Below, one piece after another: positions 24,321 to 61,478 of a DNA stretch of 64,000 nt. How positions within the stretch are numbered: position 1 is the stretch's first letter; each line of letters starts with the position of its first letter. Position numbers and translations under genes: made by a program. Source of the stretch: a virus (taxonomy: Duplodnaviria > Caudoviricetes); the IMG/VR virus record IMGVR_UViG_3300025098_005131. The stretch is one strand, 5' to 3'. The notes under the pieces were generated by a model, which searched no databases, had not been told where the DNA came from, and saw nothing but the letters and a program-made list of their open reading frames with translations.

Positions 24321-24353
24321 CGTCGTGTAACTCTAGAAGAGTAAGGATATAAT

Positions 24354-24527
24354 AAACCATAAGGAGGGATAGGAACGGCGGTTCCTAAGGACGAAGAGGA
24401 CGGGATGGCAACCGGCTTCGGGATTCCAACTCCAGATATTTGAAAACTAGGTAACTCCAGCTGATGAAGCGGTCAAGATACACGAGGACTGCGATGTGAG
24501 ATGACTCAGCTGAAAAGGACGTAAAAC
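24354..24527 (+). ncRNA. Candidate structured small RNA under the first promoter
   Basis: No convincing ORF. Stems GGAAC/GTTCC and CAGCTGA (24458)/TCAGCTG (24506), enclosing GTCA/TGAC and CAC/GTG. Confidence 0.35.
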
Positions 24528-24601
24528 GTGTAAAACTAGATTCCTTAGTCTATAATACAGATGTAAGGACAAACGATCAATCATTTAATCAAGGAGGTCT
24601 C

Positions 24602-24670
24602 ATGGAGGCTTATATGATTCCCGACGTAATAACCTTTCTTTCTCTTGCGGCATTTGTCTGGTGGTTGTAA
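24602..24670 (+). CDS. 22-aa membrane micro-peptide
   Basis: MEAYMIPDVITFLSLAAFVWWL*; own promoter (24528) and AAGGAGG SD. Confidence 0.7.
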   Translation: MEAYMIPDVITFLSLAAFVWWL

Positions 24671-24741
24671 CCACTCACCTCGTCAACTCGAAACGTGTAA
24701 CTCATCTAAAGTAAAGATATAATAAACCATAAGGAGGACAA

Positions 24742-24819
24742 ATGATCTACAGCTTAATCCCACTCATTCTTGGCTCAGCATTCTTGGCGATTCCCTTCGC
24801 GATCTGGTATTACAATTAA
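24742..24819 (+). CDS. 25-aa membrane micro-peptide
   Basis: MIYSLIPLILGSAFLAIPFAIWYYN*; own promoter (24695) and AAGGAGG SD. Confidence 0.7.
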   Translation: MIYSLIPLILGSAFLAIPFAIWYYN

Positions 24820-24878
24820 TAAGGAACCAAACTCAGCTCAACCCGTGTAACTAATAAAACAAAGGATTATAATAAACC

Positions 24879-25565
24879 ATGGAAAACATTCAATCAAACA
24901 TTCAAGGAGACAACATGGAAACAACAACAATACAACAACTATTTCAGGAGTTCATTAACGATGGTGGTGAACCTAAAGTGACTTCATTCAAGAGACATCT
25001 TGATAAGTTGATTAATCAAGAGATTAAAGGTCTTTGTGGTCGCTCGGCGAAGGCTGGTCTCGTCGACGATTGGCGTAGCGAGGTGAAGGCCCGTTTCTCA
25101 GGTCGTGGGGCGAAGTGGGTTAAGGTATCTGTTAATGATATCCTTCCGACTCTCGAAGGATTTGATGATACAACTGAATATATGGGATGGGTTCAGACAG
25201 CGGGATTTGCGTGGATTCGTTTCGCTGGACCTCGCGTCGCGAATGGAAGTCATTGTGCGGCCTTTGAGGTTCGAACTGGTGGATCGACGATTGATCATCC
25301 TAAACAGCTTCACTACATTCCCGCTCAGTTGCTTGACGACAAGATCGAGCCTCTCAATTCGACTCCCCACGCGATGAAGCTTGAAGAGGTCGCGACGACT
25401 CCCGTAGTGGAGGAGCCTGAAGTAGAGGAAGAGGTTATCGAGCTTAGCGGTTACGAGTTAAACCCGGACGACGACGGCGGTTCAGCTTGGGCTGAAGATG
25501 ATGACGAGGACATGATGGGTGACATTGAGGACCTCATGGACGACGAGGACAACTTAGACTTCTAA
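24879..25565 (+). CDS. Unknown 'GRGAKW' family, paralog A, acidic tail
   Basis: RFSGRGAKWVKV, GFAWIRF and FEVRTGGSTIDHPKQLH. Likely start 24915 (AAGGAG SD). Confidence 0.85.
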   Translation: MENIQSNIQGDNMETTTIQQLFQEFINDGGEPKVTSFKRHLDKLINQEIKGLCGRSAKAGLVDDWRSEVKARFSGRGAKWVKVSVNDILPTLEGFDDTTEYMGWVQTAGFAWIRFAGPRVANGSHCAAFEVRTGGSTIDHPKQLHYIPAQLLDDKIEPLNSTPHAMKLEEVATTPVVEEPEVEEEVIELSGYELNPDDDGGSAWAEDDDEDMMGDIEDLMDDEDNLDF

Positions 25566-25695
25566 GGTGTTTTGGGTGGTGGTGGCTTCGTGGCGTCGTC
25601 TCGCTTCGTGTAAATAATAATACCTTAGGTTATAATATGACCATAAGGACAAACAAACTAAACAAACAACAACAACAACGTGAAAGGACTTCTAT

Positions 25696-26037
25696 TTGAG
25701 AAGTAACAGCACATTCCTTACCCTCATCGCTTCCTTTTGTCTCTCAGCAGTTGCTTACAACGTCGCTCAGCCGGTTGAGGTTCCTGTTCAACATCTTGAG
25801 TTTGATGACTATGTGATTCAACCTCGCGTCGAGACATATGTGTTTGATGACTATGTGATTCAATCTTCAGCTGAAGTTATTGACATGGACGAGGTGATCA
25901 TCATTTCGCAGGAGGACGAATCAGATGACGGTGACGGTGCAAACATTGACATGATGAATGCTAACTGGTGTCTCATCCACCCTGACGACGTGATCTGTCA
26001 AGATGCAGACGAGGAGGACGAAGTAGAAGGTTGCTAA
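25696..26037 (+). CDS. Acidic secreted/membrane-anchored protein
   Basis: Signal-like N-terminus; internal repeat FDDYVIQ x2; own promoter. Confidence 0.65.
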   Translation: MRSNSTFLTLIASFCLSAVAYNVAQPVEVPVQHLEFDDYVIQPRVETYVFDDYVIQSSAEVIDMDEVIIISQEDESDDGDGANIDMMNANWCLIHPDDVICQDADEEDEVEGC

Positions 26038-26149
26038 GACTCAGGGTGTCTACCCCTCGATGCGTCGTCTCTTAACGTGTAACTCTTTAAGAGATTAAGT
26101 ATAATATAACATAAGGTTTAACAAACAACAACGTGACGAAAGGTTCAAT

Positions 26150-26395
26150 ATGATCTTCATAACAGTTAATCAACGAGGTTACTCTGACTCTGAACTTTAT
26201 GGTCCATTCACTTCAGTTGACGAAGGGAAACGAAAGGTGACTGATGGTGTTGATCGAGGACATGATGGTGATGAGACCAAGTATACATTCTTCGAGATGA
26301 CAACTGACGGGATGAAGGAGATTGGTTACGTTCATCTTGACGATGAGTGTGAAGGTGACGAGGATAATCTAAGAAGTGAAGTGTTTTACAACTAG
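26150..26395 (+). CDS. Acidic hypothetical protein
   Basis: ORF track; promoter 26077 and AAAGG SD. Confidence 0.7.
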   Translation: MIFITVNQRGYSDSELYGPFTSVDEGKRKVTDGVDRGHDGDETKYTFFEMTTDGMKEIGYVHLDDECEGDEDNLRSEVFYN

Positions 26396-26460
26396 GATGT
26401 AACGACGTTAACGTGTAAGACGACGAAAGACAATGTATAATAAAACATAAGGAGGAACAA

Positions 26461-26652
26461 ATGACAGTTCAACAGCTAATCGAAAAGCTACAATCTTTAG
26501 ATCCTCACAACGAGGTGGTTATTGAGGTGAATCATGATGACATCGTTCTTCTGAAAGAAGACAGGATTGTTGAGGACGTTATTACACAGGATTATCGTCT
26601 CGCGACGCAAGAAGACGTAGAAACACGAAAGGTTATAACACTAAGAGTATGA
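26461..26652 (+). CDS. Small hypothetical protein (MTVQQLIEKLQ type)
   Basis: Promoter 26413; AAGGAGG SD. Confidence 0.75.
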   Translation: MTVQQLIEKLQSLDPHNEVVIEVNHDDIVLLKEDRIVEDVITQDYRLATQEDVETRKVITLRV

Positions 26653-26747
26653 TTACTTTTACTGAATCTGCGGCAAATGGTGGGCTTCTCTTCGCAAGTT
26701 TCTTTATGGCGACACTTCTATACGCCTACATTACAGATGCACTTTAA
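26649..26747 (+). CDS. 32-aa membrane micro-peptide
   Basis: MITFTESAANGGLLFASFFMATLLYAYITDAL*; ATGA overlap with the upstream gene. Confidence 0.55.
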   Translation: MITFTESAANGGLLFASFFMATLLYAYITDAL

Positions 26748-26756
26748 GGATAAACT

Positions 26757-26813
26757 ATGACTTTAATCTATATGCTACTACTACTTTTCATCATCACTCA
26801 ATTCAACAAATAA
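26757..26813 (+). CDS. 18-aa hydrophobic micro-peptide
   Basis: MTLIYMLLLLFIITQFNK*; AAGGA SD. Confidence 0.5.
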   Translation: MTLIYMLLLLFIITQFNK

Positions 26814-26824
26814 GGAGCAATCAC

Positions 26825-27058
26825 ATGGACATCGAAGTTATTCAAAATCACAGACGTCGCGCTGAACTCATCATTGACAATACACTACTTGCTAACGGCG
26901 TACAACCAACCGCATCGCTCATCGAGGAGTTTCTTTCTTTCTACGACTACAACGGATTAGCTGCAACAATCAACAATATCTACAGCTACTCAAAAACAGT
27001 TCTTCATTCACGTCACGAACAACCTTACTTCCAACTAAACTTAGTGACTCACCGTTAG
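26825..27058 (+). CDS. Hypothetical protein
   Basis: ORF track; AAGGAG SD. Confidence 0.7.
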   Translation: MDIEVIQNHRRRAELIIDNTLLANGVQPTASLIEEFLSFYDYNGLAATINNIYSYSKTVLHSRHEQPYFQLNLVTHR

Positions 27059-27163
27059 GACCCTTGGTGGCGTCGTCCCTCATCGTGTAACTTTCAAATA
27101 AGCTTAGTATAATATATCATAAGGCAACAAACAATCAATCAACCCAAACAAAGGATAATCAAT

Positions 27164-27373
27164 ATGATTAAAACTAAAAAAGTTAGAAGAAGAATAACAG
27201 ACAAACCAAGCACTTTAATCTGGAGTGAGGCAAACAAAAACGGCGGATATACTATCTTCCACGGCGTGAAGGGAACTGATACTAAAACTATCGTTGGCGG
27301 TGCAGCTTCTCGTGATTCTCTTGAATACAACATTCGTAAAGCTAAGCACAAGTACGGCTACAAACTAAGCTAA
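27164..27373 (+). CDS. Basic hypothetical protein
   Basis: Promoter 27085; AAAGGA SD. Confidence 0.7.
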   Translation: MIKTKKVRRRITDKPSTLIWSEANKNGGYTIFHGVKGTDTKTIVGGAASRDSLEYNIRKAKHKYGYKLS

Positions 27374-27482
27374 TGACTCGGGGTTACCACCCTGCATGGC
27401 GTCGTCTCTCCTCGTGTAAGATTTAAATAATCTTGGTATAATAAACCATAAGGCAACATCAACTAAATAAAGGATTTGATCT

Positions 27483-27635
27483 TGAAATACAATAAGATTC
27501 GAAAACAAATCAAAAATCTTTCAAACCGAGCAATGCATGAGGAGAACTTGACAAACTACAAAAAGGCTGATGAGCTTCGCAATCAGGCTTACTTCTTATC
27601 TCAGGTCTTGGAAAACAAATCAAGAGGGTTTTAAC
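27483..27635 (+). CDS. 50-aa hypothetical protein (TTG start, not in ORF track)
   Basis: MKYNKIRKQIKNLSNRAMHEENL...; follows promoter 27414 and AAAGGA. Confidence 0.5.
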
Positions 27636-27723
27636 TCCAAACGTGTAAGTCTCAAATAATCAAGTTATAATAAAACATAATCCAAACAAACAAACAATCA
27701 TTCAATCCAAAAGGATAACAAAT

Positions 27724-28386
27724 ATGGAAAACTCAAACAATCAATCAATCAACTCAAACGAGGTTCCTATGTCAGACATTCAATCAATCTTCCAAGCTTT
27801 CGTCGAGTCCGGTGGCGAACCAAAGGTTACAAGTTTCAAACGTCACCTTGATAAACTTATCAATCAAGAGATTAAGGCTCTTTGTGGTCGCTCATCCAAA
27901 ACAGGCGGCGATGATTGGAGAAGTGAACTCAAATCTAAGTTCGGAGGCCGAGGAGCGAAATGGGTCTTTGTCAGCCTTGAAAACATTAAACCTACTCTTG
28001 ATCGCCTCGCAACTGAAGGTATCGATATCGAAGATTATAATAAGTTTACTCAAGCTCACGGCCAAGCTTGGATTCGATTCAGCGGTCCTCGAATTGATAA
28101 TGGAGTTCAATCGGCAGCTTTCGAAGTTCGAACTGATGGGTCAACTATCGATCATCCAAAACAACTTCACTATGTCCCTGTAAGCGAGTTAGATGAGACC
28201 ATTACATTCATGAACACAACTCCGCACTCAATGAGAGTTGAAGAAGTTGCGAAGCCTCAAGAAGTAGAGGAAGAGGTCGAGGTTAAGCTCAGCGAAACTG
28301 AAGAGACTCCAGTAGTTGAAGAAGATTACGTTGATGTAATGGATGATATCGATGAGCTCATGGACTTCGAAGAGATGGACCTCTAA
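27724..28386 (+). CDS. Unknown 'GRGAKW' family, paralog B, acidic tail
   Basis: GGEPKVTSFKRHLDKLINQEIK shared with paralog A; KFGGRGAKWVFV; FEVRTDGSTIDHPKQLH. Confidence 0.85.
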   Translation: MENSNNQSINSNEVPMSDIQSIFQAFVESGGEPKVTSFKRHLDKLINQEIKALCGRSSKTGGDDWRSELKSKFGGRGAKWVFVSLENIKPTLDRLATEGIDIEDYNKFTQAHGQAWIRFSGPRIDNGVQSAAFEVRTDGSTIDHPKQLHYVPVSELDETITFMNTTPHSMRVEEVAKPQEVEEEVEVKLSETEETPVVEEDYVDVMDDIDELMDFEEMDL

Positions 28387-28513
28387 GGTTTAGGTCGATA
28401 TTGATTCGGCGTTGCCACCCTTGGTAGCGTCGTCCCGGGACGTGTAACTTTTACATACCTTAGATATAATATATCATAAGGCAAAACAATCAATCAATCA
28501 ACGAGGAGACAAT

Positions 28514-28807
28514 ATGTCTGTAACAAACAAAATAAAAGTGCAATGGGAGTTTGACATCGAGACCAATGAAGAGTTGCAGTCGCGACTAGGTCTTACTGAA
28601 GGTGATGTTGCTGAGATGCTTAGCGACGAGGATGATGCAGTAAAGCTTCACGATCTATGTTGTGATGAAATGGGTGTTCCTCGCTACGTGGACATGGATC
28701 TTTTCTTCGACAACCCGCACGCAGCAAGTGACGACCAGATTACAGACGCACTAAGCGACGAACACGGATGGCTAATCAATGAATGGCACTACGTGCAAAA
28801 ACGTTAA
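28514..28807 (+). CDS. Acidic hypothetical protein (similar to 61217-61429)
   Basis: KIKVQWEFD...DQITDALSDEHGWLI. Confidence 0.7.
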   Translation: MSVTNKIKVQWEFDIETNEELQSRLGLTEGDVAEMLSDEDDAVKLHDLCCDEMGVPRYVDMDLFFDNPHAASDDQITDALSDEHGWLINEWHYVQKR

Positions 28808-28877
28808 TCCACGTTGTATAATATATCATAATCCAAACAATAACATTCAATCAATCTTTTAATCAATCAGGAGCTTA

Positions 28878-29111
28878 ATGAGCGACTATCAATACCAAGA
28901 AATCTTCGAGACGTGGCGCAACAAAACATTGTCAGAAGGCTTTACCCTTAATCAATTCCGGAGTCGATATAACTTCTTTGTAGAACGTGACAATATATGC
29001 GAACTCACCAAAGCTGTAGGCGCAAAGATGGCTTACATGAGCCTCGTCAAACAGCATCAAGAAGAGCTTCGACTCGTGCAAAGTGAAATGGAGAACGTAA
29101 GATGGATATAG
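28878..29111 (+). CDS. Hypothetical protein
   Basis: ORF track; AGGAG SD. Confidence 0.65.
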   Translation: MSDYQYQEIFETWRNKTLSEGFTLNQFRSRYNFFVERDNICELTKAVGAKMAYMSLVKQHQEELRLVQSEMENVRWI

Positions 29112-29332
29112 TCAAATATACAAAAGAGTTTCTCTATCTCTTCTCAGGTATGACAGCTCTTTTTGCCTGTACGATCGGAATCATAGTTGTTTCTTTGGCA
29201 CCTTTCGGTTTATGCATTTATCTCGGCGACGTACTAGGGTATCACGGTGTGATCGCGATGGGAGCAACAGTTTCCGTATACGCTTTTTACTATATCATAG
29301 CACGTCGTTTCAATCTACTCGGGGAAGTATAA
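29102..29332 (+). CDS. Two-TM small membrane protein
   Basis: Two hydrophobic helices. Confidence 0.6.
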   Translation: MDIVKYTKEFLYLFSGMTALFACTIGIIVVSLAPFGLCIYLGDVLGYHGVIAMGATVSVYAFYYIIARRFNLLGEV

Positions 29333-29568
29333 TGAATGTTGATCATACACAAATCCTTACATGGCCAACTCCAACAGGCATCGCAGCGTCGAACAAAGTC
29401 ACTCAAACGGCGAGGATTAATAACTACCTTGCAACAACAAAAACCTTTCTGGCTGACGGAACGGAAGTTATACCAAATAGCGAAACACTCAAAATAATCC
29501 TTCAAGGCTGGGATGACTTTGGTGTTGAAGTTGTTATCTCTTCAGACTCTTACATTGTAAAGGACTAA
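29332..29568 (+). CDS. Hypothetical protein
   Basis: Likely start MNVDHTQ at 29332, within track ORF 29212-29568. Confidence 0.55.
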   Translation: MNVDHTQILTWPTPTGIAASNKVTQTARINNYLATTKTFLADGTEVIPNSETLKIILQGWDDFGVEVVISSDSYIVKD

Positions 29569-29572
29569 ATAT

Positions 29573-29752
29573 ATGATTGAAACTATTATGTCTGCAAACT
29601 TTTGGCTTAGTGCTCTTGTTCCTGTTTCTTTACTTGCATTGCCTATCATGCTTGTTGGCAAAGCAACTCCAGTTCGTTCTTTTATGGCTGCTGTTGTAAT
29701 CTATCTCATGATTATTCTTCTCTCATCATGCAATATACCTGGTCCATTCTGA
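29573..29752 (+). CDS. 59-aa two-TM membrane protein (not in ORF track)
   Basis: MIETIMSANFWLSALVPVSLLALPIMLVGK...LLSSCNIPGPF*; AAAGGA SD. Confidence 0.55.
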   Translation: MIETIMSANFWLSALVPVSLLALPIMLVGKATPVRSFMAAVVIYLMIILLSSCNIPGPF

Positions 29753-29959
29753 TTCGCTATGTCCACCCTACGGTGTCGTCCTAATCACTAGCAGTGACAT
29801 TTTGATCTACTTTTGCGTAGATCTGGTCGCTGCTTTTTTGTATTCAGAGTATGCTCAAGGGTATAACAGCTCATCCCGTCTAGCGTGTAATATTTACTTT
29901 TTTAGTGTATAATATATCATAAGGCAACACAAACAATCATTCAATTCAAAGGAATCCTC

Positions 29960-30250
29960 ATGGCTTCAATAAGAACAACTAAAATCGGCGATACTCTAAC
30001 AATCAAAAAGATAGCACAGATCTATGGCCATCACCCTAACGGAAGATTCCTCACCAATCACAGCTCACATCCTGATTGCGCATACCCAAAGGTTAATGAT
30101 ACCCAATACATCATACAACCTGGCACAAAACTCGCTGTTATTAATAAAGGCAAAGCTGAAACAAAGTTTAGAGAAAGCTATGTCACTGTAGTTCATAACC
30201 AACACGAATTCGATATCATGTCTTCAGACCTAAGAAGATTCTGCGATTAA
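29960..30250 (+). CDS. Hypothetical protein
   Basis: Promoter 29885; AAAGGA SD. Confidence 0.7.
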   Translation: MASIRTTKIGDTLTIKKIAQIYGHHPNGRFLTNHSSHPDCAYPKVNDTQYIIQPGTKLAVINKGKAETKFRESYVTVVHNQHEFDIMSSDLRRFCD

Positions 30251-30336
30251 CACTTATCGTGTAATATAGATCAATCCTGTTTTATAATATATCATAATCC
30301 AATACAAACAATCATTCATCCCAAAAGGAAACAAAC

Positions 30337-30690
30337 ATGAATAACGTTTTAAAAGAAAACACCTACTTCATTATCGATTATCGCAGCCTCCCTTCAGGCA
30401 TCGGATCTATCGTCTTTCCAGACGACAAGACAATACTCGTCACAGACGAAGAATGCGGACCAAAAAACATGGAAGAAGCAAAACAACATATCAAAAAAGA
30501 GTTTCTCCCATCAGATGTTTCTCACATTCCATTCAGCACATCTGAACACTACAAAGTCGGCCAATCAGCACTAAGCACTATCCTTGAACATCATAACGTC
30601 AAATACGTTTACGATTCTGAAATGGGATACGAATTCAACAACGGCGAAACTACATTCACTCTAAATCAATGGTTAAAGATGAGAGGTTAA
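30337..30690 (+). CDS. Hypothetical protein
   Basis: Promoter 30259; AAAGGA SD. Confidence 0.7.
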   Translation: MNNVLKENTYFIIDYRSLPSGIGSIVFPDDKTILVTDEECGPKNMEEAKQHIKKEFLPSDVSHIPFSTSEHYKVGQSALSTILEHHNVKYVYDSEMGYEFNNGETTFTLNQWLKMRG

Positions 30691-31097
30691 CATGACATTA
30701 GAACAACTAAACAAAGCTATCCACGACGAAAGACAGAGTCGCGGCCTTACTGGTCGCCTAGAAGACCTCATCAATAAACGCAACAAACTCTTAAAAGGTA
30801 AGTCATGATATACTTTACTACTTACTTCATAGGATTAGTCATCGGCTTCTTTGCAGGCTCCTTATTCACTAAAGCTGTCGAGCCTAAAGAAGAATACATT
30901 TCTCTCACTCCAAAAGGCCAAGACTATCTCGATAAACTAAATAACAGTGACTCAACCGAACAACCCTAACGTCTCGTCATCATCACTGCTGCAAACATTT
31001 TAATCAAACCATCAGCTAAAGTTACCTCCTCAATCGTGTAACCCTGTTTAATCTCTTTATATAATATATCATAACAACCTTCCAAAGGATTTACAAC

Positions 31098-31463
31098 ATG
31101 AATAATCAAATAAGTTTAACTCAATGGAATGAGCTCATCGAAACTGTTAAGAACTCACCTGTTACTAAAGTCCAAGCAGATGACACTCTATACATCAGCT
31201 CACGTAACTTCGGCAACTCTAAACGCTACTTCTGCTACGATAACTACGATCGATTCGATGTTCCAGGTCTAGACTTCATCATCTCAAACAACGATGAACT
31301 CGGAAAACTCACAGTCTACAGCGCTAGCGAACAAGCTAGAGCTCCTATCAGCTTCGAACAAGGTAAACAAATTGCCCGAAACCTCTTCAATGAATACGGT
31401 GACCAGATGGCAGAAGAGATCGTTTGTGAATGGGTTATGGAAGGCAACAACAGCACTTTCTAG
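31098..31463 (+). CDS. Hypothetical protein
   Basis: Promoter 31036; AAAGGA SD. Confidence 0.7.
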   Translation: MNNQISLTQWNELIETVKNSPVTKVQADDTLYISSRNFGNSKRYFCYDNYDRFDVPGLDFIISNNDELGKLTVYSASEQARAPISFEQGKQIARNLFNEYGDQMAEEIVCEWVMEGNNSTF

Positions 31464-31745
31464 TCAAGCTGCTCTGTCTCACGTAGCACAGCTTTGAATC
31501 AGCTTTCCCCGGGACAGAATTGAAAAAAATGTTAATGATAATGATTATCAATATCAGTACGCGTCTCGAGCTTAGTCGTGAGGGTAGTAGCCGTGAGGCA
31601 GAATAGAATCCTTACGTTAACGCTGTTTTGGTTTTTTGCGTCGCGATGATAGTTTGTTTGTATAAGTGTAGAAGTTTAACGTGTGTGTAAATTCGGCCAC
31701 TTGTTGATTAAGATAGGGTGGTATATGATAGAAGGAGAAGAGTGA

Positions 31746-32045
31746 GTGAAGAGAAGATATATTTTAGTGTTGGTATTGAGTTTATTGTGGAGTGGTTGTG
31801 GAGCGATGTTGGGTTCTTCGAATGGAGTGAAGAGGTATGAGATTGGGAGTGAGAAGAGTTATGAGGTGAGTTGTATGGAGGGGGGAGAAGAGGTTGTGTA
31901 TGAGTGGGTGAGAGTGAGGGAGGGGAGTTTAGCGTATGACGTTGAGAAGAGGGTGTGGGATTTTGTAGGGAAGAGGAAGAGAGATGGTAAGTTATTGAGG
32001 GTGATTAGTAGTAGTTGTAGGATGGAGATGGGGGATTTGATATGA
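31746..32045 (+). CDS. Lipoprotein (similar to 47026-47322)
   Basis: Lipobox WSGC; CMEGG...SSSC pattern. Confidence 0.65.
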   Translation: MKRRYILVLVLSLLWSGCGAMLGSSNGVKRYEIGSEKSYEVSCMEGGEEVVYEWVRVREGSLAYDVEKRVWDFVGKRKRDGKLLRVISSSCRMEMGDLI

Positions 32046-32242
32046 CGTATATGATTGGTGGAGTGTTAGGATTGGGGTTATTGATGTATGTATTAGTGAT
32101 GTTTTTGTTTTTGCGTGGGAAGAGTGGATTAGAGAGGGAGGTAGAGAGGAAGATGAAGTTGGGGATGGAGTTGCAGCGTAGTGGGAAGTTGAGGGAGTAT
32201 GGTGAGTTGATGAGGGAGATAGAGGAGTTGGAGGGGAAGTGA
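32042..32242 (+). CDS. Single-TM small protein
   Basis: N-terminal TM helix and amphipathic tail. Confidence 0.6.
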   Translation: MTYMIGGVLGLGLLMYVLVMFLFLRGKSGLEREVERKMKLGMELQRSGKLREYGELMREIEELEGK

Positions 32243-53611: not shown

Positions 53612-54274
53612 ATGAAAAAAAAGTTAAACAACATAAAGCATAATCTATTAGAACAGTGGAAAAAATCCTTTGATTATAAAGGATTTAGTGACTTAAAACT
53701 TGAAGAAATTAAAAAACTTTTATTGAAGCAGAAAAACATATCTTTGTTAACTGAAAAGTATGGTGCAGATATTTTGCTAGATCTAGAAAAACTAAATATA
53801 AGTTTAATAAAGTCTCAAGCTATAGCAAAAAAGCGTGGTGACCTTTTTGAAGAATTTATACTTAGTAATTCTTTAAAAATAACAGCGAGTAAAGATGTTG
53901 AAATATATACTCAAATAGATAAGAAAAGCATTTTATTTCCTGACTTTTTAAAAAAAGATATTCCAATAGACAAGATCGATCTCTTAATTAAAAGTAAAGA
54001 CTATAATGCAGTCTGTTATATTCAAGTAAGTCTTTGGGGAGGAGGTCAACAGCTAAACAGGGGCGAAAAATATAACTCTATTGAAAAAAACAGCTTATAT
54101 GATATATGTCGTGCTAATGGCTGGAAATTTCATACTATAGTTTGTAATGAGCCTCCCAACATATCAGCTACGAAAAAAGAAACAAGAACTTTTCAGATAA
54201 TAAAGTCTGGTCATGAAAACAATATAATGATGTACCCATCAAAGTTTTTTCATATTTTAAAGGAAATACAATGA
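53612..54274 (+). CDS. Putative PD-(D/E)xK restriction endonuclease
   Basis: RGDLFEEFI...KIDLLI...YIQVSLWGGGQQLNRG; ATGA-coupled to a methyltransferase. Confidence 0.5.
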   Translation: MKKKLNNIKHNLLEQWKKSFDYKGFSDLKLEEIKKLLLKQKNISLLTEKYGADILLDLEKLNISLIKSQAIAKKRGDLFEEFILSNSLKITASKDVEIYTQIDKKSILFPDFLKKDIPIDKIDLLIKSKDYNAVCYIQVSLWGGGQQLNRGEKYNSIEKNSLYDICRANGWKFHTIVCNEPPNISATKKETRTFQIIKSGHENNIMMYPSKFFHILKEIQ

Positions 54275-55101
54275 TTAAGAGCGAAGTAACGAACGATCAA
54301 TTCTATACAAAAGATGCAGTTGCGCATACCTTAATTAAAAAATTGCAGAACAAATATAAAAGTATAGACATGTATTTAGAACCATCAGCTGGGTCTGGTT
54401 CTTTTTATAACTTTTTGCCTAAAGGTAAAAGGATGGGTCTAGATATCGACCCTAAGCATGAAGAAATAAAAAAGCAAGACTTTTTTAGTTTCGATAGCAG
54501 TAACTTAATAAAATCATACAACAGTATTTGTGTAGTAGGAAATCCTCCTTTTGGGAAGAACTCATCTTTAGCAATTAAATTTTTTAATCACAGCGCTGAA
54601 TTTGCCAAATATATAGCTTTTATTGTTCCTAGAACGTTTCGTAAAGAGTCAGTAGTTAATAGACTAGATAAACACTTTCACTTGGTATATGAAGAAATTT
54701 TAGAAAAAAAATCATTCAAGCTAGTTGATAACACTGACTATTCTGTGCCATGTACCTTTCAAGTATGGGAAAAGAAAAACTTTAGTCGTAAAGTTGTGTT
54801 AAGAAGTAAAAATCACAAAGATTGGTCTTGGGTTTCGAAAGAAGACAATCCAAAATTTGCTATAAGGAGAGTTGGTGTAAACGCTGGTAAGATTTTTAAA
54901 TTTGATAAAAACATATCACCTTCTTCACACTACTTTATAAAATGTGATTTGCGAGTATTTGATAATTTTAAAAAGCTATTTGAAACAATGTATAGTAAAG
55001 AAAACAATAACACACATAAGTATGATACAGTTGGAAACCCTTCAATTAGTATGTCCGACTTGGTTGAGGACTATTCTAGATTATTCCAGCGTGCAACTTA
55101 A
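54271..55101 (+). CDS. N6-adenine DNA methyltransferase
   Basis: DQFYT; LEPSAGSGSF (motif I); VGNPPFG (motif IV). Confidence 0.9.
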   Translation: MIKSEVTNDQFYTKDAVAHTLIKKLQNKYKSIDMYLEPSAGSGSFYNFLPKGKRMGLDIDPKHEEIKKQDFFSFDSSNLIKSYNSICVVGNPPFGKNSSLAIKFFNHSAEFAKYIAFIVPRTFRKESVVNRLDKHFHLVYEEILEKKSFKLVDNTDYSVPCTFQVWEKKNFSRKVVLRSKNHKDWSWVSKEDNPKFAIRRVGVNAGKIFKFDKNISPSSHYFIKCDLRVFDNFKKLFETMYSKENNNTHKYDTVGNPSISMSDLVEDYSRLFQRAT

Positions 55102-55193
55102 CAAACTTTAATAATTCATAATAGACAGTTATAGATATAAAACGATATTAAAACTAATCACGTATTAATCCAGTTTTAAAGGACCGAAAATAA

Positions 55194-56177
55194 ATGAATA
55201 ATCATATCAATTCCATCAGACTTCCTAACCATATTCAATACGTGCTTTCTACATTATTTAAGACAATTGATGTTTATGATTACTTAAAAGAAGAAGCTTG
55301 GATTGCCGGGGGTTTTCCCAGAATTATTAGTAAAGAACTTAACTCTAATACGTCAGAGACTTTAGGAAAAGTTTATAGATATTTTTATAACATGGGTGAT
55401 ATCGACATTTTTTCAAGCAATAAAGATAAAGTTAATGATATCACCAACGTAATTAGTAATAGAGTTAAAGCTATTAGAGAAGAAATAATGTATGACGGCT
55501 TTTGTCTTAATAAAGTAAGTGATGCAATTAAAGACGTAAACAGTTTTGAACTACCTTTTACTTTTAATTACGAAAGAAATTTAACTGCTTTAAATAAAAT
55601 CTGCAAGAAAAACAAAGTTAAATATGTAGATGAAGCCCTAAAAGTAGACTTAGAGTTTAGTGTAATACAGACACAGTTTGTTAATAAGTTTATATTTAAA
55701 GACATTAATGAATGCTTTGATAATTTTGACTTTTCTAATTCTAAACTAGCAATATCATTCAAAAGTGGAGAATATTATTTACATTATACAGACTTAGCAG
55801 AGTTTTACAATTCTAGAAACATTTTGAATATTGAGAAAGTTGAGTCACCATATCTTTCAAGTAGAATAACAAAGTATACAAGAAAATACATGTTTGATAT
55901 TGATGATAACAAAAATTTTAGAAATCAGATCAAAGATTATCTATATAAGATACTGCAAGGAAAGTGGCCTGATGTATATAATGGTGCATTCGATATGTCT
56001 AGTTCTGTAAAGAATCTTCATTCTAGTATCGAGCTAGACAGCAAAGATCTTTGCCTTTTCCTGGGAATGTTTACGCACATGAACAGAGTAGCAAGTAAAA
56101 GTGGGTATGGTTTTATGCGTAGTAAAATTATTGAAGTTGACTGGGCAAAACATGAAATGAGTCAAAAAAATGGTTAA
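55194..56177 (+). CDS. Nucleotidyltransferase (CCA-adding / poly(A) polymerase head-like)
   Basis: AWIAGGFPR; GDIDIF; QFV; NFDFSNSK. Confidence 0.7.
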   Translation: MNNHINSIRLPNHIQYVLSTLFKTIDVYDYLKEEAWIAGGFPRIISKELNSNTSETLGKVYRYFYNMGDIDIFSSNKDKVNDITNVISNRVKAIREEIMYDGFCLNKVSDAIKDVNSFELPFTFNYERNLTALNKICKKNKVKYVDEALKVDLEFSVIQTQFVNKFIFKDINECFDNFDFSNSKLAISFKSGEYYLHYTDLAEFYNSRNILNIEKVESPYLSSRITKYTRKYMFDIDDNKNFRNQIKDYLYKILQGKWPDVYNGAFDMSSSVKNLHSSIELDSKDLCLFLGMFTHMNRVASKSGYGFMRSKIIEVDWAKHEMSQKNG

Positions 56178-56957
56178 AAAAGAAGAAATTAAAACAAAGT
56201 TAGAAAAGTGTCCGTATTGTAAAAAGAAGACAGTTACATTCTATCTGCATGAATGTGAAAGATCAATGTCAGAGTATTACGGTTGCAATAAGTGTGACGA
56301 CTGGTGTGTTCACTGCAATAAGGAGTGGGCTGATGGAACAAATAAAAAAGGGTAAAATTTATATTCTTGATAATGGTTTTGATGACATCAAGATTGTTAT
56401 CGCCTTAGAAACTGAAAGAGAATTGCGTTATGAAGAGGACGTTGTATATAATATGTCTTTAGACTTTGTCGAAGTTCTTATAGAAAATAAAGTAGAGACA
56501 ACATTAGTTTCAGACTTACATAAAATTACAGGAGTTAAGTATAATGATTAGTGTAGTATTCGGAATTACACATCCCAGACTATGTGAAGAGTTACCAGAA
56601 GGTAAACATAAGTTTTTTGATATTGGTGAGACAAAGTCTTCTACGTTGATATTAAAAAACTTAATGAAAGATTTGCTGGATTATGACAGCCATCCAGATA
56701 TTGATTTAGTTTTTAGCGACTTTTGTAAAAGCAGAGTATTAAATAACGAAAGCAATTACCATCACATAAGACTTAAAAATATATTCAAAGAGTTTAGCAA
56801 ATGGTACAATGGAACAAAGGTCTCCGCTACTAAAATGTATTTAATTAAAAGAGAAGGAAACAAAGTCTTAGATGTATATGAAAGATGGAATACTTATAGA
56901 GAAAATCCATTCTTTGTTCCGAAAAAAGCAAAGCCTAAAAAGACTTTTTATGTGTAA
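56170..56957 (+). CDS. Three small hypothetical ORFs (56170-56355 Zn-ribbon CxxC, about 56333-56551, 56544-56957)
   Basis: CPYC, CNKC and CVHC in the first ORF; overlapping starts and stops. Confidence 0.6.
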
Positions 56958-56999
56958 TTTATATAATAAAAACTTATAATAGTCTATAAGGAGAAAATA

Positions 57000-58133
57000 G
57001 TGATTCAATTAAATAAAATATACTTTGATGGTAAAGGTTATATACAAAGGCGTATAGACTTAAATGATCTGCCTGCAAATGATCTTATCAAGATCTGCTC
57101 GAGATTTAATTTTACGCCTGTTGATAGTATATCATTTGAAAACTATGAACCACAAACTTTTTGTGACATTACAATAAATGACTACTTCATTCAATGCGTT
57201 TCAATTAAACACATCTATACAGACTCTAAAAAGTCGACTCATACTGTATTGTATCCTTCACACAATCCAAGTAGACTTTATTAAATAGAAAGAAATATAA
57301 ATGCAGCAAGTACAAAGTAAACATAAATGGATTCCAGTCGTAGTTGATTATCTATATGTTGCTGGTGATAAACTAGAAAACATTTTTGCTCATGCAAAAG
57401 TTATACATGGTTATCGTGAAGATGGATATGAGTATTACGAAATAATGATTCCATCACACAACTTTTTTACTTGCTATATTGATGCAGATAAAATAGAGGA
57501 ATTTCTATGAAAATCGACAAACTTAGTATTTTATCTGGTATTTTTTTCTGTTTAACTTTCATACCTGTTTCAATGGTTATGATAGGAACAACACTTACTA
57601 TTTTAGGAATTTTATAGTTAAAATGACAGAAGAAAACATTAAAGAGTTTTTTTACAGTATCAATAGTTTGAATCTTAATAAAAAACAAAAAAAAAGAATA
57701 CTACAGCTTTTTCAAGTAAGAGGTATTAATAAGAAAAACAAAGTAATGACTTACTGTGAATTCAAGAAAATTCTTTTAAATAGACAAGGCAAGATAACTA
57801 GTTTAGTATTAGGGCCAAAGTGGAATAGACTTGTTTTTGCTGATATAGACATAGAGTTATAAAATGAAAGATAAAGATGCAAACGAAGTTCAAAAACAAG
57901 TTATTGACGAAATTAAAGAAAGTGGTGCAATATTAGTTTATATAAATGTTGACGGAAACATTACTCTGTTAACGTCAGGCAATATAACTAAATTGCAATC
58001 AAAGACTGCTGAGCGTATGTTAATTTCTGTAAATCCTTCAATTATTTTAAGTATCATAATATGGATGGAAATTAACTTTGTTAAGCTAGAAGATACAGTT
58101 TATGGGTTTCTTAGGAAGATATTCAAAGTGTAA
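57000..58133 (+). CDS. Small hypothetical ORFs (57000-57284, 57301-57510, 57623-57862, 57864-58133)
   Basis: ORF track; promoter 56952. Confidence 0.6.
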
Positions 58134-58189
58134 TTTGTACAATTAATGTTTATAATATAATGTAAACAACAATCATTGAGGACAAAAAT

Positions 58190-58744
58190 ATGTCAAAAAA
58201 TAAATTTAAAAAACAAATTCAAGAAAAGTACAAAGGTAGAGGAAATACGTGGGTAAAGATTCCAAAAGACTCTCCTGCTTTTCAAAGTTTTTTAAGTCTT
58301 ATTCCTAGTTGTAGTGATGGAACTATGTTTCTTGATCATGTTAATCGCGAAGGTTTTGGTTGGGCTAGATTTTCCAAAGTCGAAGGAGATGAATCAAATC
58401 CTGTTGAATTATTTGAAGTTAGATATAAAGGATCTAGGTTTGATCATCCTGAAAATATTTTAAACGTTCCTCATTCTGTGTCTAAAGACTTTCCTTTACT
58501 AGGCAATACTCCTGTTAAGATTGATATCGAAGTACTTCCAGAAAACAGGAAAAGCAAAAAACAAGTAAATACTTTCAAACGTAAGATTGTTAAAAACAGT
58601 GAAGAAGTAATTGAAGACTATCAAAGTATAGAACAAGAAATTACAATTATTAAAGAAGCAGCACTAACTAAACCTTCAAACAAAGAGCTTGAAAACTGGT
58701 ATGAGTTTTTAAAGCTTAACGGGCTTTATGAGGAAAATGTTTGA
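58190..58744 (+). CDS. Unknown 'GRGAKW' family, paralog D
   Basis: KYKGRGNTWVKI; GFGWARF; FEVRYKGSRFDHPE; LGNTP; C-terminal WYEFLKLNGL resembles WEAFLASEGL of paralog C. Confidence 0.8.
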   Translation: MSKNKFKKQIQEKYKGRGNTWVKIPKDSPAFQSFLSLIPSCSDGTMFLDHVNREGFGWARFSKVEGDESNPVELFEVRYKGSRFDHPENILNVPHSVSKDFPLLGNTPVKIDIEVLPENRKSKKQVNTFKRKIVKNSEEVIEDYQSIEQEITIIKEAALTKPSNKELENWYEFLKLNGLYEENV

Positions 58745-58906
58745 CTTTTATACTTTAACTGCGTTTGTTATACTATTTAGTTATTTGCATTCTTTCTACA
58801 ACCATAGAAAAAGAACAGACGTTTACTTTATATTTTTATTTACAGAACTTACTTTATTGTTTACTTATATTAACTTCCAAAGCTTTTTTAAATAAAGGAC
58901 TTAGCT

Positions 58907-59239
58907 ATGACACAATGGGTTGAAATCAGACAAGGTGATACTATTCACTTCAAAGAAAAGTCTGGAAAAGGATCAGTTGTATTTACTTCTAACAACGGAA
59001 ACTATTTTATGCCGGCAAAAGTCGGCATGAGAATTAAAGGTGTTGCAAAGCCTATTTTGAAAAATGAAGAGTTTATCTTTAGCCAAAGCACAGTTCAGTC
59101 TGTTTCAGGTGCAACTCGTGTTGTTAAATGTGAGTTATTAAGACTTTCTGATAATTCTAACTTCTTTGTATCAGAAATGGACTTAATGTCATACTTTTCT
59201 AAATCAAACAAAAGCAGTCTAGGCGGACACGTTTATTAA
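58907..59239 (+). CDS. Hypothetical protein
   Basis: ORF track; AAAGGA SD. Confidence 0.65.
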   Translation: MTQWVEIRQGDTIHFKEKSGKGSVVFTSNNGNYFMPAKVGMRIKGVAKPILKNEEFIFSQSTVQSVSGATRVVKCELLRLSDNSNFFVSEMDLMSYFSKSNKSSLGGHVY

Positions 59240-59248
59240 GGAATAAAC

Positions 59249-59506
59249 ATGAAATATCTTTACGTAATATGTTTTATAATTATAACTTTGTATTCTTGTA
59301 TATCGAAAAGAGAATATGATAGAGTGTTAAATGAAAACAAAGATATCATGAAAACAATTGAGAAAAACGACCTATTAACACAAGATGTAAGACAGCTTGA
59401 ATTTAAGATTAAAAACATTGAGTTTAGCTTACAAATGTGTGAAATAAAATTAAGAAAGCAAGATAGAAAACTTGTTGAATGTATAAACATGCGAGGTTGC
59501 AAATGA
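59249..59506 (+). CDS. Coiled-coil lipoprotein
   Basis: Lipobox LYSC; heptads. Confidence 0.6.
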   Translation: MKYLYVICFIIITLYSCISKREYDRVLNENKDIMKTIEKNDLLTQDVRQLEFKIKNIEFSLQMCEIKLRKQDRKLVECINMRGCK

Positions 59507-59733
59507 TTAGATCTAGCGATGAACTTATAGATAGAAAAATAGAAATAGACTTAAGAGGCAGAGATGGTAATGCTTTTGTTTTATTAGGATATGTGGACAC
59601 AATTGGCGAGCAAATCAACATACCAAAAAGAGTTAGAAACGACATTAAAAAAACAATGATGATGGGTAATTATGATCAGTTGATTAATACTTTTGATATT
59701 TGGTTTGGTAACTATGTCGACCTCTACAGATGA
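59503..59733 (+). CDS. Conserved-type phage hypothetical protein
   Basis: IEIDLRGRDGNAFVLLG...GNYDQLINTFDIWFG. Confidence 0.7.
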   Translation: MIRSSDELIDRKIEIDLRGRDGNAFVLLGYVDTIGEQINIPKRVRNDIKKTMMMGNYDQLINTFDIWFGNYVDLYR

Positions 59734-59989
59734 TTTCTATTTAAATCCTGGTGATATGATATGGGTTCACTTAAAAGGTCCAGACCAAAATTATGGCCAT
59801 GGTGAAGTTAAAGAAGTTTGGTTTGATGAAGAAATCAAAGAAGAGCTTTTTTGCTTTCATTGTTTAGTTAACGGTGGTTATAGAATGGGGAAAACATCTG
59901 AGCTAATAGAGAAACCAAACGCAAGAATGGTTTCAAAACTCTTACAGTCAAGAAAAGAATTCAATGAGATAATGAAGGAAAGAAGATAA
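59693..59989 (+). CDS. SH3-like hypothetical protein
   Basis: LNPGDMIWV...GHGEVKEV. Confidence 0.6.
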   Translation: MIFGLVTMSTSTDDFYLNPGDMIWVHLKGPDQNYGHGEVKEVWFDEEIKEELFCFHCLVNGGYRMGKTSELIEKPNARMVSKLLQSRKEFNEIMKERR

Positions 59990-60050
59990 TAAAGTGTAAC
60001 TCTTAAAATGTAGTGTTATAATAATAAAAACAAGGAAAAGGAATATTAAA

Positions 60051-60671
60051 ATGGACATTCAATCAATCAGAAAAATTATTTTCCCAAAAGTAAATGATAT
60101 CATTGCTAAGCTTGAAGAAGATCAACACGAAATTAAACTAACATTACTTCGAGAAATATTTAATGATGCAATCAATAGTCATCTAAACATTAGTCATACA
60201 AGCAATGTAAGTATTAAAGCTATGTTTTCAGGTAGAGGGCGTGCTTGGGCAAAAGTTAATGTAGACGATAATAACCCAGCCTGGGTCGAAATAAAAAACT
60301 CTTTAAGTCATGAGATATCAACATCTGTCAGTAGTTCAAATATGTTTGCAGAATGTAGTAATATGATTGATATATTTGAGAGTGCTGGGTTTGCATGGAT
60401 AAGATTTTCTTCTTCCTCGAAAGGATTTTCAAAATTTCAGATAAGAACAAAAGGTTCAAAGCTAGAAGACCATATAAAAGTAAGAATAGAAAATACAGAT
60501 TTATTAAATAATAATGTAGTCAATCTTGAAGGAGTTCCTCATAATCTAGGATTAGAAACAGGAATCTTTGAAAACAAAAAATGCATAAAAGAAATTATCA
60601 ACATTCCTGTTGAAACTAAAGACTTAGATGCAGTAGGTATTATAAGACTAGAAGACTTGCTAGATGCCTGA
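60051..60671 (+). CDS. Unknown 'GRGAKW' family, paralog E
   Basis: MFSGRGRAWAKV; GFAWIRFS; FQIRTKGSKLEDH; LEGVPHNLGLE. Confidence 0.8.
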   Translation: MDIQSIRKIIFPKVNDIIAKLEEDQHEIKLTLLREIFNDAINSHLNISHTSNVSIKAMFSGRGRAWAKVNVDDNNPAWVEIKNSLSHEISTSVSSSNMFAECSNMIDIFESAGFAWIRFSSSSKGFSKFQIRTKGSKLEDHIKVRIENTDLLNNNVVNLEGVPHNLGLETGIFENKKCIKEIINIPVETKDLDAVGIIRLEDLLDA

Positions 60672-60879
60672 GTTAGTGGTTGGTGAACTTGTTTTATTTA
60701 AATCACCTATGTATCAAAAAGGTTTATTGTGTTTAATAATTTCTATTGACAAGATATATAATATCCCTACTAAGGATTATTTTCTTCAGTACAATTTGTT
60801 TTGTCCAGAATCTATTCATAAATTTAGAATCTGGAATAGTTCTTGTAAAAATTCATCCAAGATAGAAAAGGTAAATTAA
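60664..60879 (+). CDS. Small hypothetical protein
   Basis: ORF track. Confidence 0.5.
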   Translation: MPELVVGELVLFKSPMYQKGLLCLIISIDKIYNIPTKDYFLQYNLFCPESIHKFRIWNSSCKNSSKIEKVN

Positions 60880-60880
60880 T

Positions 60881-61165
60881 ATGTCAAAGTGTGCTCGATG
60901 TACAACCTGTACTGCTGGTATTATGTGCCAATGTGGTAAATCAAAAAAGAAAGAAAGATCAAGCGTAAATCATCCTGATCATTATATGAAGACATCAGGC
61001 CATGAAGTCATCGACGTGATTGATGCATGGCGTCTTGATTTTAATTTAGGAAATGCAGTTAAATATATTGGTAGAGCAGGAAAAAAGAATCCAGATAAAG
61101 CTGTAGAAGATCTTGAAAAAGCTGTCTGGTATATTACTCACGAAATTAATTCTTTAAAAAAGTAA
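60881..61165 (+). CDS. DUF3310-type protein
   Basis: VNHPDHY...EVIDVI...FNLGNAVKYIGRAGKK...EDLEKAVWYI. Confidence 0.9.
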   Translation: MSKCARCTTCTAGIMCQCGKSKKKERSSVNHPDHYMKTSGHEVIDVIDAWRLDFNLGNAVKYIGRAGKKNPDKAVEDLEKAVWYITHEINSLKK

Positions 61166-61216
61166 AAACAAATACAATTTTTATGTTATATATAGACTCA
61201 AAATAGGAGATTTAAT

Positions 61217-61429
61217 ATGATTAAAGTTAAGAAAATTGTTTGGTCGTTTGATGGAACAGACTTTGAAGATTGTGATTACGAAGAATCAAGAAAGATTGCA
61301 GTATTACCTAAGTCGTTAAAAATAAATGAAGATGATATTGATAGCGACGCGCAAGAAGAAGATATCTTTGAATATCTTGAATCTATTTACGGATTTGAAG
61401 TTGAATCAGTAGTTTTCGAAGAGGACTAA
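61217..61429 (+). CDS. Acidic hypothetical protein (similar to 28514-28807)
   Basis: IKVKKIVWSFD...LPKSL...IFEYLESIYGFEV. Confidence 0.7.
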   Translation: MIKVKKIVWSFDGTDFEDCDYEESRKIAVLPKSLKINEDDIDSDAQEEDIFEYLESIYGFEVESVVFEED

Positions 61430-61478
61430 ACGTGTATTAACATTAATTTTGTTTTATAATAACAAAAAAAAGGAAATT

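Follow-up and report, generated by a model that had tools for sequence, protein, structure and literature searches.

Predicted promoters with an off-consensus −35 hexamer (GTGYAA) head an array of exchangeable ORFan cassettes in a probable marine jumbo phage

The 64,000-nucleotide stretch of viral DNA in IMG/VR record IMGVR_UViG_3300025098_005131, hereafter the window, carries between 24.3 and 61.5 kb an array of 37 same-strand copies of the element GTGTAA-N17/18-TATAAT, which are predicted from their sequence to be lineage-specific promoters of the sigma70 family. This part of the window is probably a hyperplastic, non-structural (pre-late) region of the genome of an uncultured marine jumbo phage, built as an array of promoter-headed ORFan cassettes; a Pfam match was found in only 6 of the 89 open reading frames (ORFs) of the array. 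Cassettes are gained, lost and translocated between relatives and natural populations, and the promoter-leader unit rather likely serves as a site of short-homology recombination, which would keep recombinants viable.

A repeated unit upstream of small gene cassettes

Both strands of the window were scanned with the pattern GTG[CT]A[ATG]-N17/18-TATAAT. The scan returned exactly the 37 copies listed in a preliminary description of this DNA, all on the + strand from 24325 to 61432 (the last −10 ends at 61460), and none on the − strand. GTGTAA and TATAAT were both perfect in 32 copies, the other five carrying one mismatch in the −35; the chance expectation was a mean of 0.14 and a maximum of 2 sites (200 dinucleotide-preserving shuffles of 24001–62000, both strands). 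When a simple gene model was applied, all 37 sites fell in gaps upstream of + strand genes, with the start codon 20–60 nt downstream of the −10. As first described, copies lay close to the preceding gene, about two thirds of them beginning within 20 nt of its stop codon or overlapping it, and each headed a small cassette, of one to seven ORFan genes. Continuation of most copies into ATAYCATAAGG and an A/C-rich leader was also borne out: ATAYCATAAGG was present downstream of the −10 exactly in 11/37 and with at most two mismatches in 24/37, and A/C-rich leader words in 27/37 (leader A+C 0.66 vs 0.50 window-wide). The near identity reported for two pairs of neighbouring units was recovered as 58 of 59 positions for 35669 and 37794 and as 60 of 62, with an exact run of 49 nt, for 43356 and 43693. 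All copies are listed below; the −35 is GTGTAA unless a variant is named, and L and X numbers are handles for loci of relatives and for sequencing runs.

24325–24353, +, promoter GTGTAA-N17-TATAAT, first of the array; heads a micro-ORF or short RNA
24528–24556, +, promoter, spacer 17; heads a micro-ORF
24695–24723, +, promoter, spacer 17; ATAAGGAGG itself is the Shine-Dalgarno (SD) sequence of a hydrophobic micro-ORF
24845–24873, +, promoter, spacer 17; heads 24915–25565 (paralog family member)
25608–25636, +, promoter, spacer 17; heads 25696–26037
26077–26105, +, promoter, spacer 17; heads 26150–26395; cassette 26039–26401 missing from L054, L048 and contigs of five other metagenome runs
26413–26441, +, promoter, spacer 17; heads 26461–27058 (3 ORFs)
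27085–27113, +, promoter, spacer 17; heads 27164–27373
27414–27442, +, promoter, spacer 17; heads 27482–27634
27643–27671, +, promoter, spacer 17; heads 27724–28386 (paralog family member)
28442–28470, +, promoter, spacer 17; heads 28514–28807
28793–28822, +, promoter, GTGCAA variant, spacer 18; overlaps the previous stop codon; heads 28878–29752
29885–29913, +, promoter, spacer 17; heads 29960–30250
30259–30288, +, promoter, spacer 18; heads 30337–30969; chimeric with the 31036 promoter in L029, where the cassette is missing
31036–31065, +, promoter, spacer 18; heads 31098–32242; homology blocks in relatives often begin here
32270–32299, +, promoter, GTGTAT variant, spacer 18; heads 32342–32749
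32750–32779, +, promoter, GTGTAG variant, spacer 18; heads 32827–33339; −35 half joined to the −10 half of the 33793 promoter in L064 and runs X16 and X17
33340–33369, +, promoter, spacer 18; heads 33414–33779
33793–33822, +, promoter, spacer 18; heads the GIY-YIG gene 33840–34172 and 34185–34637; most often rearranged junction
34658–34687, +, promoter, spacer 18; heads 34737–35622
35669–35698, +, promoter, spacer 18; heads 35747–37790; near-identical to the 37794 unit
37794–37823, +, promoter, spacer 18; heads 37870–38857
38870–38899, +, promoter, spacer 18; heads 38949–39750 (4 ORFs)
39745–39774, +, promoter, spacer 18; heads 39819–40028; −35 half joined to the 33793 cassette in six relatives (L053 group)
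40039–40068, +, promoter, spacer 18; heads 40115–41784 (5 ORFs); a run X6 contig joins 40036 to 43693
41787–41816, +, promoter, spacer 18; heads 41836–42544
42551–42580, +, promoter, spacer 18; heads 42627–43322
43356–43385, +, promoter, GTGCAA variant, spacer 18; heads 43428–43703; near-identical to the 43693 unit; single unit in L041 and L043
43693–43722, +, promoter, spacer 18; heads 43767–44534 (paralog family member) and tRNA-Leu 44608–44681
45984–46012, +, promoter, spacer 17, block C; heads 46042–47720 (7 ORFs)
47727–47755, +, promoter, spacer 17; heads 47795–48295
48297–48325, +, promoter, spacer 17; heads 48370–50800, including five tRNA genes
53533–53561, +, promoter, spacer 17; heads 53612–56957
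56952–56980, +, promoter, spacer 17; heads 57000–58133
58128–58156, +, promoter, spacer 17; heads 58190–59989 (first gene a paralog family member)
59994–60022, +, promoter, spacer 17; heads 60051–61429 (first gene a paralog family member)
61432–61460, +, promoter, GTGTAT variant, spacer 17; heads 61479–62713

No close match to the window was found among GenBank phages (megablast of 1–12000 and 24000–44000), and near-identical sequence is present in several marine metagenome runs, so that the DNA appears to be that of an uncultured marine phage. The helicase encoded in the window matched IMG/VR contigs at 99% and at 40–64% identity, and 49 IMG/VR stretches contained the extended promoter motif, including contigs of 211 kb (G001) and 239.5 kb (G002, which has direct terminal repeats and is rated complete). 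Both carry a Gp23 capsid gene (PF07068, E about 1e-66) and a T4 portal gene (PF07230, E about 1e-73 to 1e-78), these T4-type genes being seen in the two relatives and not in the window itself, and, judged by the capsid, Rhodothermus phage RM378 is the nearest isolate, at 34%. Because of the T4-type capsid and portal of the relatives, with RM378 as nearest isolate, the lineage is assigned to the far-T4 jumbo phages. The first part of the window is a − strand block (tail fibre, PhoH, helicase) with zero GTGTAA promoters; the helicase-flanking loci of relatives (L001–L023) lack copies too, as does 1–24 kb of the window, and are uninformative on the arrays of those phages. The boundary is formed by one feature:

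24078–24324, no strand, divergent GC-rich intergenic region separating the − strand block (1–24077) from the array

Conservation of the element was assessed in orthologous pairs, in which the alignment with a relative of less than 92% identity spanned a window promoter and 100 nt or more to either side of it. Over 31 such promoter-relative pairs, covering 18 promoters, the −35 was 91% and the −10 99% identical, as against 72% for the spacer and 74–78% for the flanks, the pattern of two hexamers under purifying selection around a spacer of fixed length and freely varying sequence. Genome-wide promoter counts come from the genomes of relatives, to which the motif scan proposed in the preliminary description was extended. 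Strict GTGTAA-N17/18-TATAAT sites numbered 26 in G002 and 33 in G001, the reversed control giving 0 and 1, respectively. Those of G002 lie at 6.6–77 kb (− strand) and 206.7–234.2 kb (+ strand), with zero copies between 77 and 206 kb, the structural region with the T4-type capsid and portal genes. Perfect TTGACA-N16–18-TATAAT sites numbered 0–1 per relative genome, vs 26–33 for GTGTAA. Distant relatives (helicase about 45% identical, GC about 40%) contained only 1–2 GTGTAA sites, and in one of them, G046, GTGCAA-N17/18-TATAAT was found 17 times vs 0 in the control, often with TGG before the −10. Since distant relatives use GTGCAA, the family-wide −35 is GTGYAA. Canonical sigma70 TTGACA-N17-TATAAT promoters were considered and ruled out: a canonical scan of the array showed no enrichment (85 vs 68.8, standard deviation 8.5), and 0 of the 37 sites qualified on the + strand.

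The selection footprint on both hexamers with a free spacer, the constant co-orientation with genes and the family-wide use are the grounds on which the 37 sites are predicted to be promoters, and on this point the original proposal stood. The contigs of RNA-library runs placed on the array (X15–X17, X19) show no 5′ ends, may contain DNA and are no proof of transcription. The spacing between the −10 and a C-A-T downstream of it is that of a pyrimidine/purine start, which would put +1 at the A, about 6–7 nt after the −10. With +1 at this A, the predicted transcript starts with the SD-like sequence 5′-AUAAGG, and it would run via an A/C-rich, G-poor leader to the real SD, AAAGGA. Speculatively, the 5′ AUAAGG and the unstructured leader would aid ribosome loading or 5′-end protection. 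A terminator scan of the array gave 3 sites vs 9.9 expected; with cassettes not separated by terminators, transcription would be expected to continue from one into the next and to build up downstream.

The array comprises three sub-blocks. In block A (24.3–31.5 kb, GC 40–45%) the spacer is mostly 17 nt; in block B (32.2–44 kb) it is always 18, and conservation is longest, from −35 to SD; block C (45–61.5 kb) is AT-rich, with a spacer of 17 and weak leader conservation. The DNA upstream of the promoters is AT-rich in blocks B and C, whereas in block A there is instead a GC-rich conserved element ending in GCGTCGTC. This second element, GAYTC...CCACCCT...GCGTCGTC, lies between stop codon and next promoter (+ strand at 25593, 26062, 27070, 27399, 28427 and 29773); it is devoid of a U-tract, and no consistent hairpin was seen in it by eye. 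Block A is also a compositional island (24000–32000, GC 40–45% vs about 30% elsewhere), and an extreme GC skew of +0.59 is found at 32–34 kb; the island and the skew could reflect mosaic origin or strand-specific coding bias.

Other observations concern individual copies and related sequences. The four promoter copies within 550 bp at 24325–24873 lead only micro-ORFs (about 12–37 amino acids, one hydrophobic) or short RNAs. A 13-nt unit (GGATAGAACTAGA-like) is present three times in tandem at about 43300–43355 (+), at the end of gene 42627–43322 and before the 43356 promoter, and relatives L041 and L043 have fewer copies of it. The palindromic AT core at the −10 and the leader word ATTCAA create TTGAAT-N16–18-TATAAT on the opposite strand, which may be a by-product of the repeat:

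40088–40061, 39806–39777, 37843–37816, 35718–35691, 32799–32772 and 24893–24866, −, examples of antisense canonical-looking promoters aimed into the upstream gene

The sole − strand site within one mismatch of the motif was TTGTAA-N17-TATAAT at 11908–11880, which precedes the TTG start codon of the helicase gene by about 40 nt. An AGTATAA(T/A)A-like box with no −35 was seen upstream of several − strand genes (7375, 11840, 17597, 23435) and could represent a second, −10-only promoter class, perhaps late.

The factor that reads the promoters

The promoters are probably read by host core RNA polymerase with a sigma70-family factor. By analogy with T4, this would be the host holoenzyme acting early, a reading that we place just short of an even chance. 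A candidate of phage origin was found as well. Four large relatives encode a sigma70-like protein that contains Pfam regions 1.2, 2 and 3 and ends just past the start of 4.1, no region 4 being found in a Pfam search of the ORF. In these four relatives, which span 45% helicase identity, it is abutted or overlapped by an ORF of 84–92 amino acids with a helix-turn-helix (HTH)-like stretch, for which neither a Pfam region-4 match nor a PDB sequence match was found. GTG(T/C)AA-N17/18-TATAAT stands directly upstream of the sigma-like gene in every relative checked (four), and it is because of this position of the gene behind such a promoter that we lean slightly towards the host holoenzyme. The pair was located as follows:

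L074:831–1824 (−), L073:807–1824 (−) and L078:1387–2420 (+), sigma-like ORF and small ORF adjoining a GroEL-like gene, with a GTG(T/C)AA promoter directly upstream

Structure prediction of a complex between the C-terminus of the sigma-like protein (residues 185–249) and the small ORF gave a score of 0.54, the best of three controls scoring 0.00; the runs showed at least 67% contact agreement and a partner pLDDT (predicted local distance difference test) of at least 68. Of 78 solved complexes, 51 reached the mark set for such predictions, as did 2 of 108 mismatched pairs; scores of 0.60 or less were those of only 5 of the 78, yet of all 4 passing mismatches. By the tool's own calibration, the result lends weak support to the predicted complex.

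The housekeeping sigma of Bacteroidota does not use TATAAT/−35 promoters. In the window, no enrichment of the Bacteroidota-type TTTG/TAnnTTTG or of the T4-late TATAAATA was found, and the promoter motif was not enriched in 41 Flavobacteriales genomes (about 1.4 vs 0.9 control matches per genome). Array genes make strong use of SD sequences, which argues against a Bacteroidota host. Nevertheless, hints of such a host exist: the sole match in genome contigs was a 5.9-kb relative contig, at 45% identity, in a Flavobacteriales metagenome-assembled genome. A homolog of ribosomal protein S21 (PF01165, 36.3 bits) is encoded in the distant relative (G046:C1:42315–42443, −), and none was found in G001 or G002. 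For aquatic 'moraphages', which are jumbo phages with sigma among their core genes, Bacteroidota are the predicted hosts (PMC12619734).

Weighing against the host holoenzyme, GTGYAA matches TTGACA at 3 of 6 positions, yet is conserved across subgroups of 30% and about 40% GC, which is awkward for a host-sigma reader. The same anatomy might be served by the phage's own sigma70-like factor, with the small HTH protein supplying the missing −35-reading module, an alternative that we hold as a tentative one. GTGYAA would then be a phage-private −35 insulating phage transcription from host promoter grammar. Conservation of the two adjacent ORFs across the four relatives, the lack of region 4 after regions 1.2, 2 and 3, and the near absence of TTGACA-type sites while GTGYAA is kept at both GC levels all fit it, as does region 2, which by eye is near that of housekeeping sigma70 (FSTYACWWIKQ) and suits a TATAAT −10; moreover, a second −35/−10 class for the phage factor was not seen. 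The position of the sigma gene behind its own type of promoter would nevertheless demand a bootstrap, the first sigma coming from the virion or from weak host-driven expression, and evidence of virion targeting of sigma was not found. The remaining points cut both ways: the complex prediction favours a split factor (0.54 vs 0.00) at a score that is weak on calibration, for a small ORF that matches region 4 neither in Pfam nor by PDB sequence, and the hints of a Bacteroidota host are opposed by the strong SD use. A broader version, possible although we consider it doubtful, would see a two-piece phage sigma (a protein ending in 4.1 plus a separate HTH −35 reader) with a GTGYAA grammar across marine far-T4 jumbo phages, possibly Bacteroidota-infecting, the array being the phage-sigma regulon and its units doubling as recombination joints.

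Exchange of cassettes, with several junctions at promoter units

When the window was compared by blastn with the loci fetched from relatives, the array was a patchwork against every one of them, with 76 distinct non-collinear junctions between the window and IMG/VR relatives after redundant contigs were collapsed. For blocks A and B, homology on the downstream side of a junction typically sets in at the −35 hexamer, 28–46 nt ahead of the last base of the −10. Three-way alignments revealed four independent chimeric promoters. In L064 (32790|33783), the flank and −35 of the 32750 unit are joined to the −10 and gene of the 33793 unit, and two cassettes are missing; in L029 (30308|31036), the 30259 unit is fused to the 31036 unit; L041 and L043 (43419|43664) have one unit in place of the 91-amino-acid gene and the two units, 43356 and 43693, that enclose it in the window; and in the six contigs of the L053 group (39785|33817) the −35 half of the 39745 unit precedes the 33793 cassette.

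Contigs of eight further marine runs added joints, among others 40036 to 43693 (run X6, promoter start to promoter start), 32764 to 33817, 26116 to 26402, 35721 to 31084 and 35734 to 27684, and gene 34185 was found behind two different promoter-leaders in metagenome contigs. Sixteen of the 18 large metagenome joints listed, which are the best supported and not a complete census, have by our own count at least one end in a promoter unit. Assembly artefact is unlikely to explain them because the exact runs shared by copies are mostly 9–15 nt, shorter than assembler k-mers. Joints that lead back along the array could stem from circles, but permutations or tandem duplications would produce them just as well.

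Five related proteins (24915, 27724, 43767, 58190 and 60051) are each encoded under their own promoter, as are the members of a second paralog pair (32342, 40115). These paralogs are consistent with cassette duplication, and scattered paralog pairs were likewise taken at the outset to fit a modular array. No integrase or transposase family was found among the 89 array ORFs, in line with the description of the array as integrase-free, a description that has to be qualified by the presence of a GIY-YIG gene in the most mobile cassette (33793–34646), which occurs in at least four different contexts in relatives:

33840–34172, +, GIY-YIG catalytic-domain protein, candidate Seg-like free-standing endonuclease (PF01541, 25.5 bits vs cut-off 22.6)

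The array also contains six tRNA genes on the same strand (44608–44681; 49407–50562), for Leu-TAA twice, Met, Thr-TGT, Lys-TTT and Arg-TCT, and a block C ORF at 54271–55101 (+) matches DNA methyltransferases in PHROG (phrog_5172, 5.9e-66; phrog_799, 1.1e-14).

The junctions are explained most economically by recombination over short homologies in the conserved promoter core, with selection retaining those products in which cassettes are intact; selective survival of intergenic junctions and, for one cassette, the Seg-like endonuclease would contribute. Several observations weigh against a role of the units as recombination sites. Breakpoints fell at 15/26 promoter-headed gene starts vs 6/21 promoterless ones (Fisher p=0.076) and at 15/24 gene ends before a promoter vs 8/23 others (Fisher p=0.082), and the preference for promoter-bearing boundaries is only about 3-fold under a gene-boundary null. 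Some junctions occur at promoterless gene starts, for example 38350 and 40732. The indel 26039–26401, which distinguishes the window from its nearest relative and five other populations, runs from stop codon to stop codon with 4 filler bases, outside the promoter. Present copies share exactly only 9–15 nt at 3/4 chimeric junctions, and selection for viable intergenic junctions may therefore explain much. The GIY-YIG cassette has two of the four chimeric junctions at its borders and for this reason may be moved by Seg-like homing. Finally, block C breakpoints are mostly unrelated to promoters, which agrees with the short shared runs in that block.

Most of these points would suit a different explanation, namely that the promoters are real but not recombination substrates, and that illegitimate recombination or homing strikes anywhere, only those intergenic junctions surviving that keep one working promoter. 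Besides the two boundary tests, the stop-to-stop indel with its filler bases, the joints at promoterless starts, the short homology of three chimeras and the GIY-YIG gene in the most mobile cassette, this explanation can draw on the fact that the promoter-leader unit occupies most of each intergenic gap. We nevertheless consider it unlikely, given four independent chimeric promoters joined in register and several contig joints running promoter-to-promoter or leader-to-leader. Moreover, the gene between the two most similar units, those with the 49-nt exact run, is precisely missing in two diverged relatives, and whether junctions lie in promoters goes with repeat length, as they do so in blocks A and B, with long repeats, but not in block C, with short ones. 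The homology handles of the preliminary description thus keep the support of the chimeric promoters and promoter-promoter joints, whereas the lack of a significant preference for promoter-bearing boundaries (p about 0.08) and the often 9–15 bp of homology tell against them; likewise, comparison of relatives confirmed that cassettes are gained, lost and moved, with four junctions inside a promoter, but not that breakpoints follow the repeats in block C.

It is very improbable that the repeats are no promoters at all and are instead bound by a protein of replication, packaging or silencing, or are remnants of small mobile elements: the −35 is indeed non-canonical and the promoter role rests on sequence, but a perfect TATAAT stands at sigma70-type spacing from a second conserved hexamer, with spacer length fixed and sequence free, the sites are always co-oriented with genes at 20–60 nt before the start codon, a YR start motif follows at the expected distance, and there are no terminal inverted repeats or target duplications, nor folding stronger than that of shuffles.

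Relation to known promoter and cassette systems

The sharply conserved non-canonical −35 GTGYAA can be used for annotating pre-late genes of the lineage, and the conserved 5′ AUAAGG with its A/C-rich leader provides a compact candidate expression module. GTGYAA and the conserved split sigma-like factor frame a testable question, that of promoter reader and host identity.

Early promoters of T4 have a phage-specific −35 region, GTTTAC, and are read by host sigma70. The array resembles them in being a phage-wide class with a conserved off-consensus −35 beside a perfect TATAAT; however, the T4 −35 matches TTGACA at 5/6 positions when shifted by one base, and GTGYAA at 3/6 at best. In the SPO1 host-takeover module and similar early clusters of large phages, the promoters match the host consensus and promoter-mediated shuffling has not been the defining feature. 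SPO1 and the array both have, towards one side of the genome, many closely spaced promoters that head small genes without known function, and the difference again lies in GTGYAA as opposed to promoters that fit the host consensus. In integrons, cassettes lack promoters, are terminated by a structured attC site and depend on the IntI integrase. The array shares with them a one-directional arrangement of small exchangeable cassettes, but it has one promoter per cassette, and neither an integrase nor a structured repeat was found in it. An integron cassette array was ruled out on the absence of an integrase family from the array ORFs and of a conserved stem-loop between cassettes.

The closest counterpart is the promoter-early stem-loop (PeSL) cassette of T4-type phages (PMC2839356, Arbiol et al. 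2010; PMC4122927, Comeau et al. 2014), the promoter consensus of which varies with the phage-host pair, with −35 sequences TTGACA, TTTACW or TTGYVH (PMC2839356, PMC4122927). Cassette gain, loss and movement at promoter copies are thus already described for T4-type phages. Likenesses include dozens of repeated sigma70-type promoter motifs in hyperplastic regions, mostly just ahead of ORFans; junctions in or beside the motif where relatives differ by indels and replacements; a consensus that differs between phage-host pairs; and the T4-type capsid and portal in relatives of this phage. By contrast, the stem-loop/terminator component of PeSL is missing from the array units: when each unit was folded together with 45 nt upstream of its −35 and 12 nt downstream of its −10, the mean z was −0.31, and z was below −2 in only 2/37. 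The PeSL analogy of the preliminary description therefore holds for the repeated promoters upstream of ORFans and for the junctions in the motif, and fails for the stem-loop. Differences are also seen in the array −35, further from consensus than any reported PeSL, in a conserved unit that reaches into the transcribed leader, in the GC-rich rather than AT-rich upstream DNA of block A, and in the lineage, that of a far-T4 jumbo phage with its own sigma70-like factor. As its units lack the stem-loop, the array is best described as a variant of the T4-type PeSL system, by which promoter-mediated modular shuffling, known from cultured T4-type phages of Proteobacteria, is extended to an abundant uncultured lineage of marine jumbo phages, with population-level evidence from many metagenomes.

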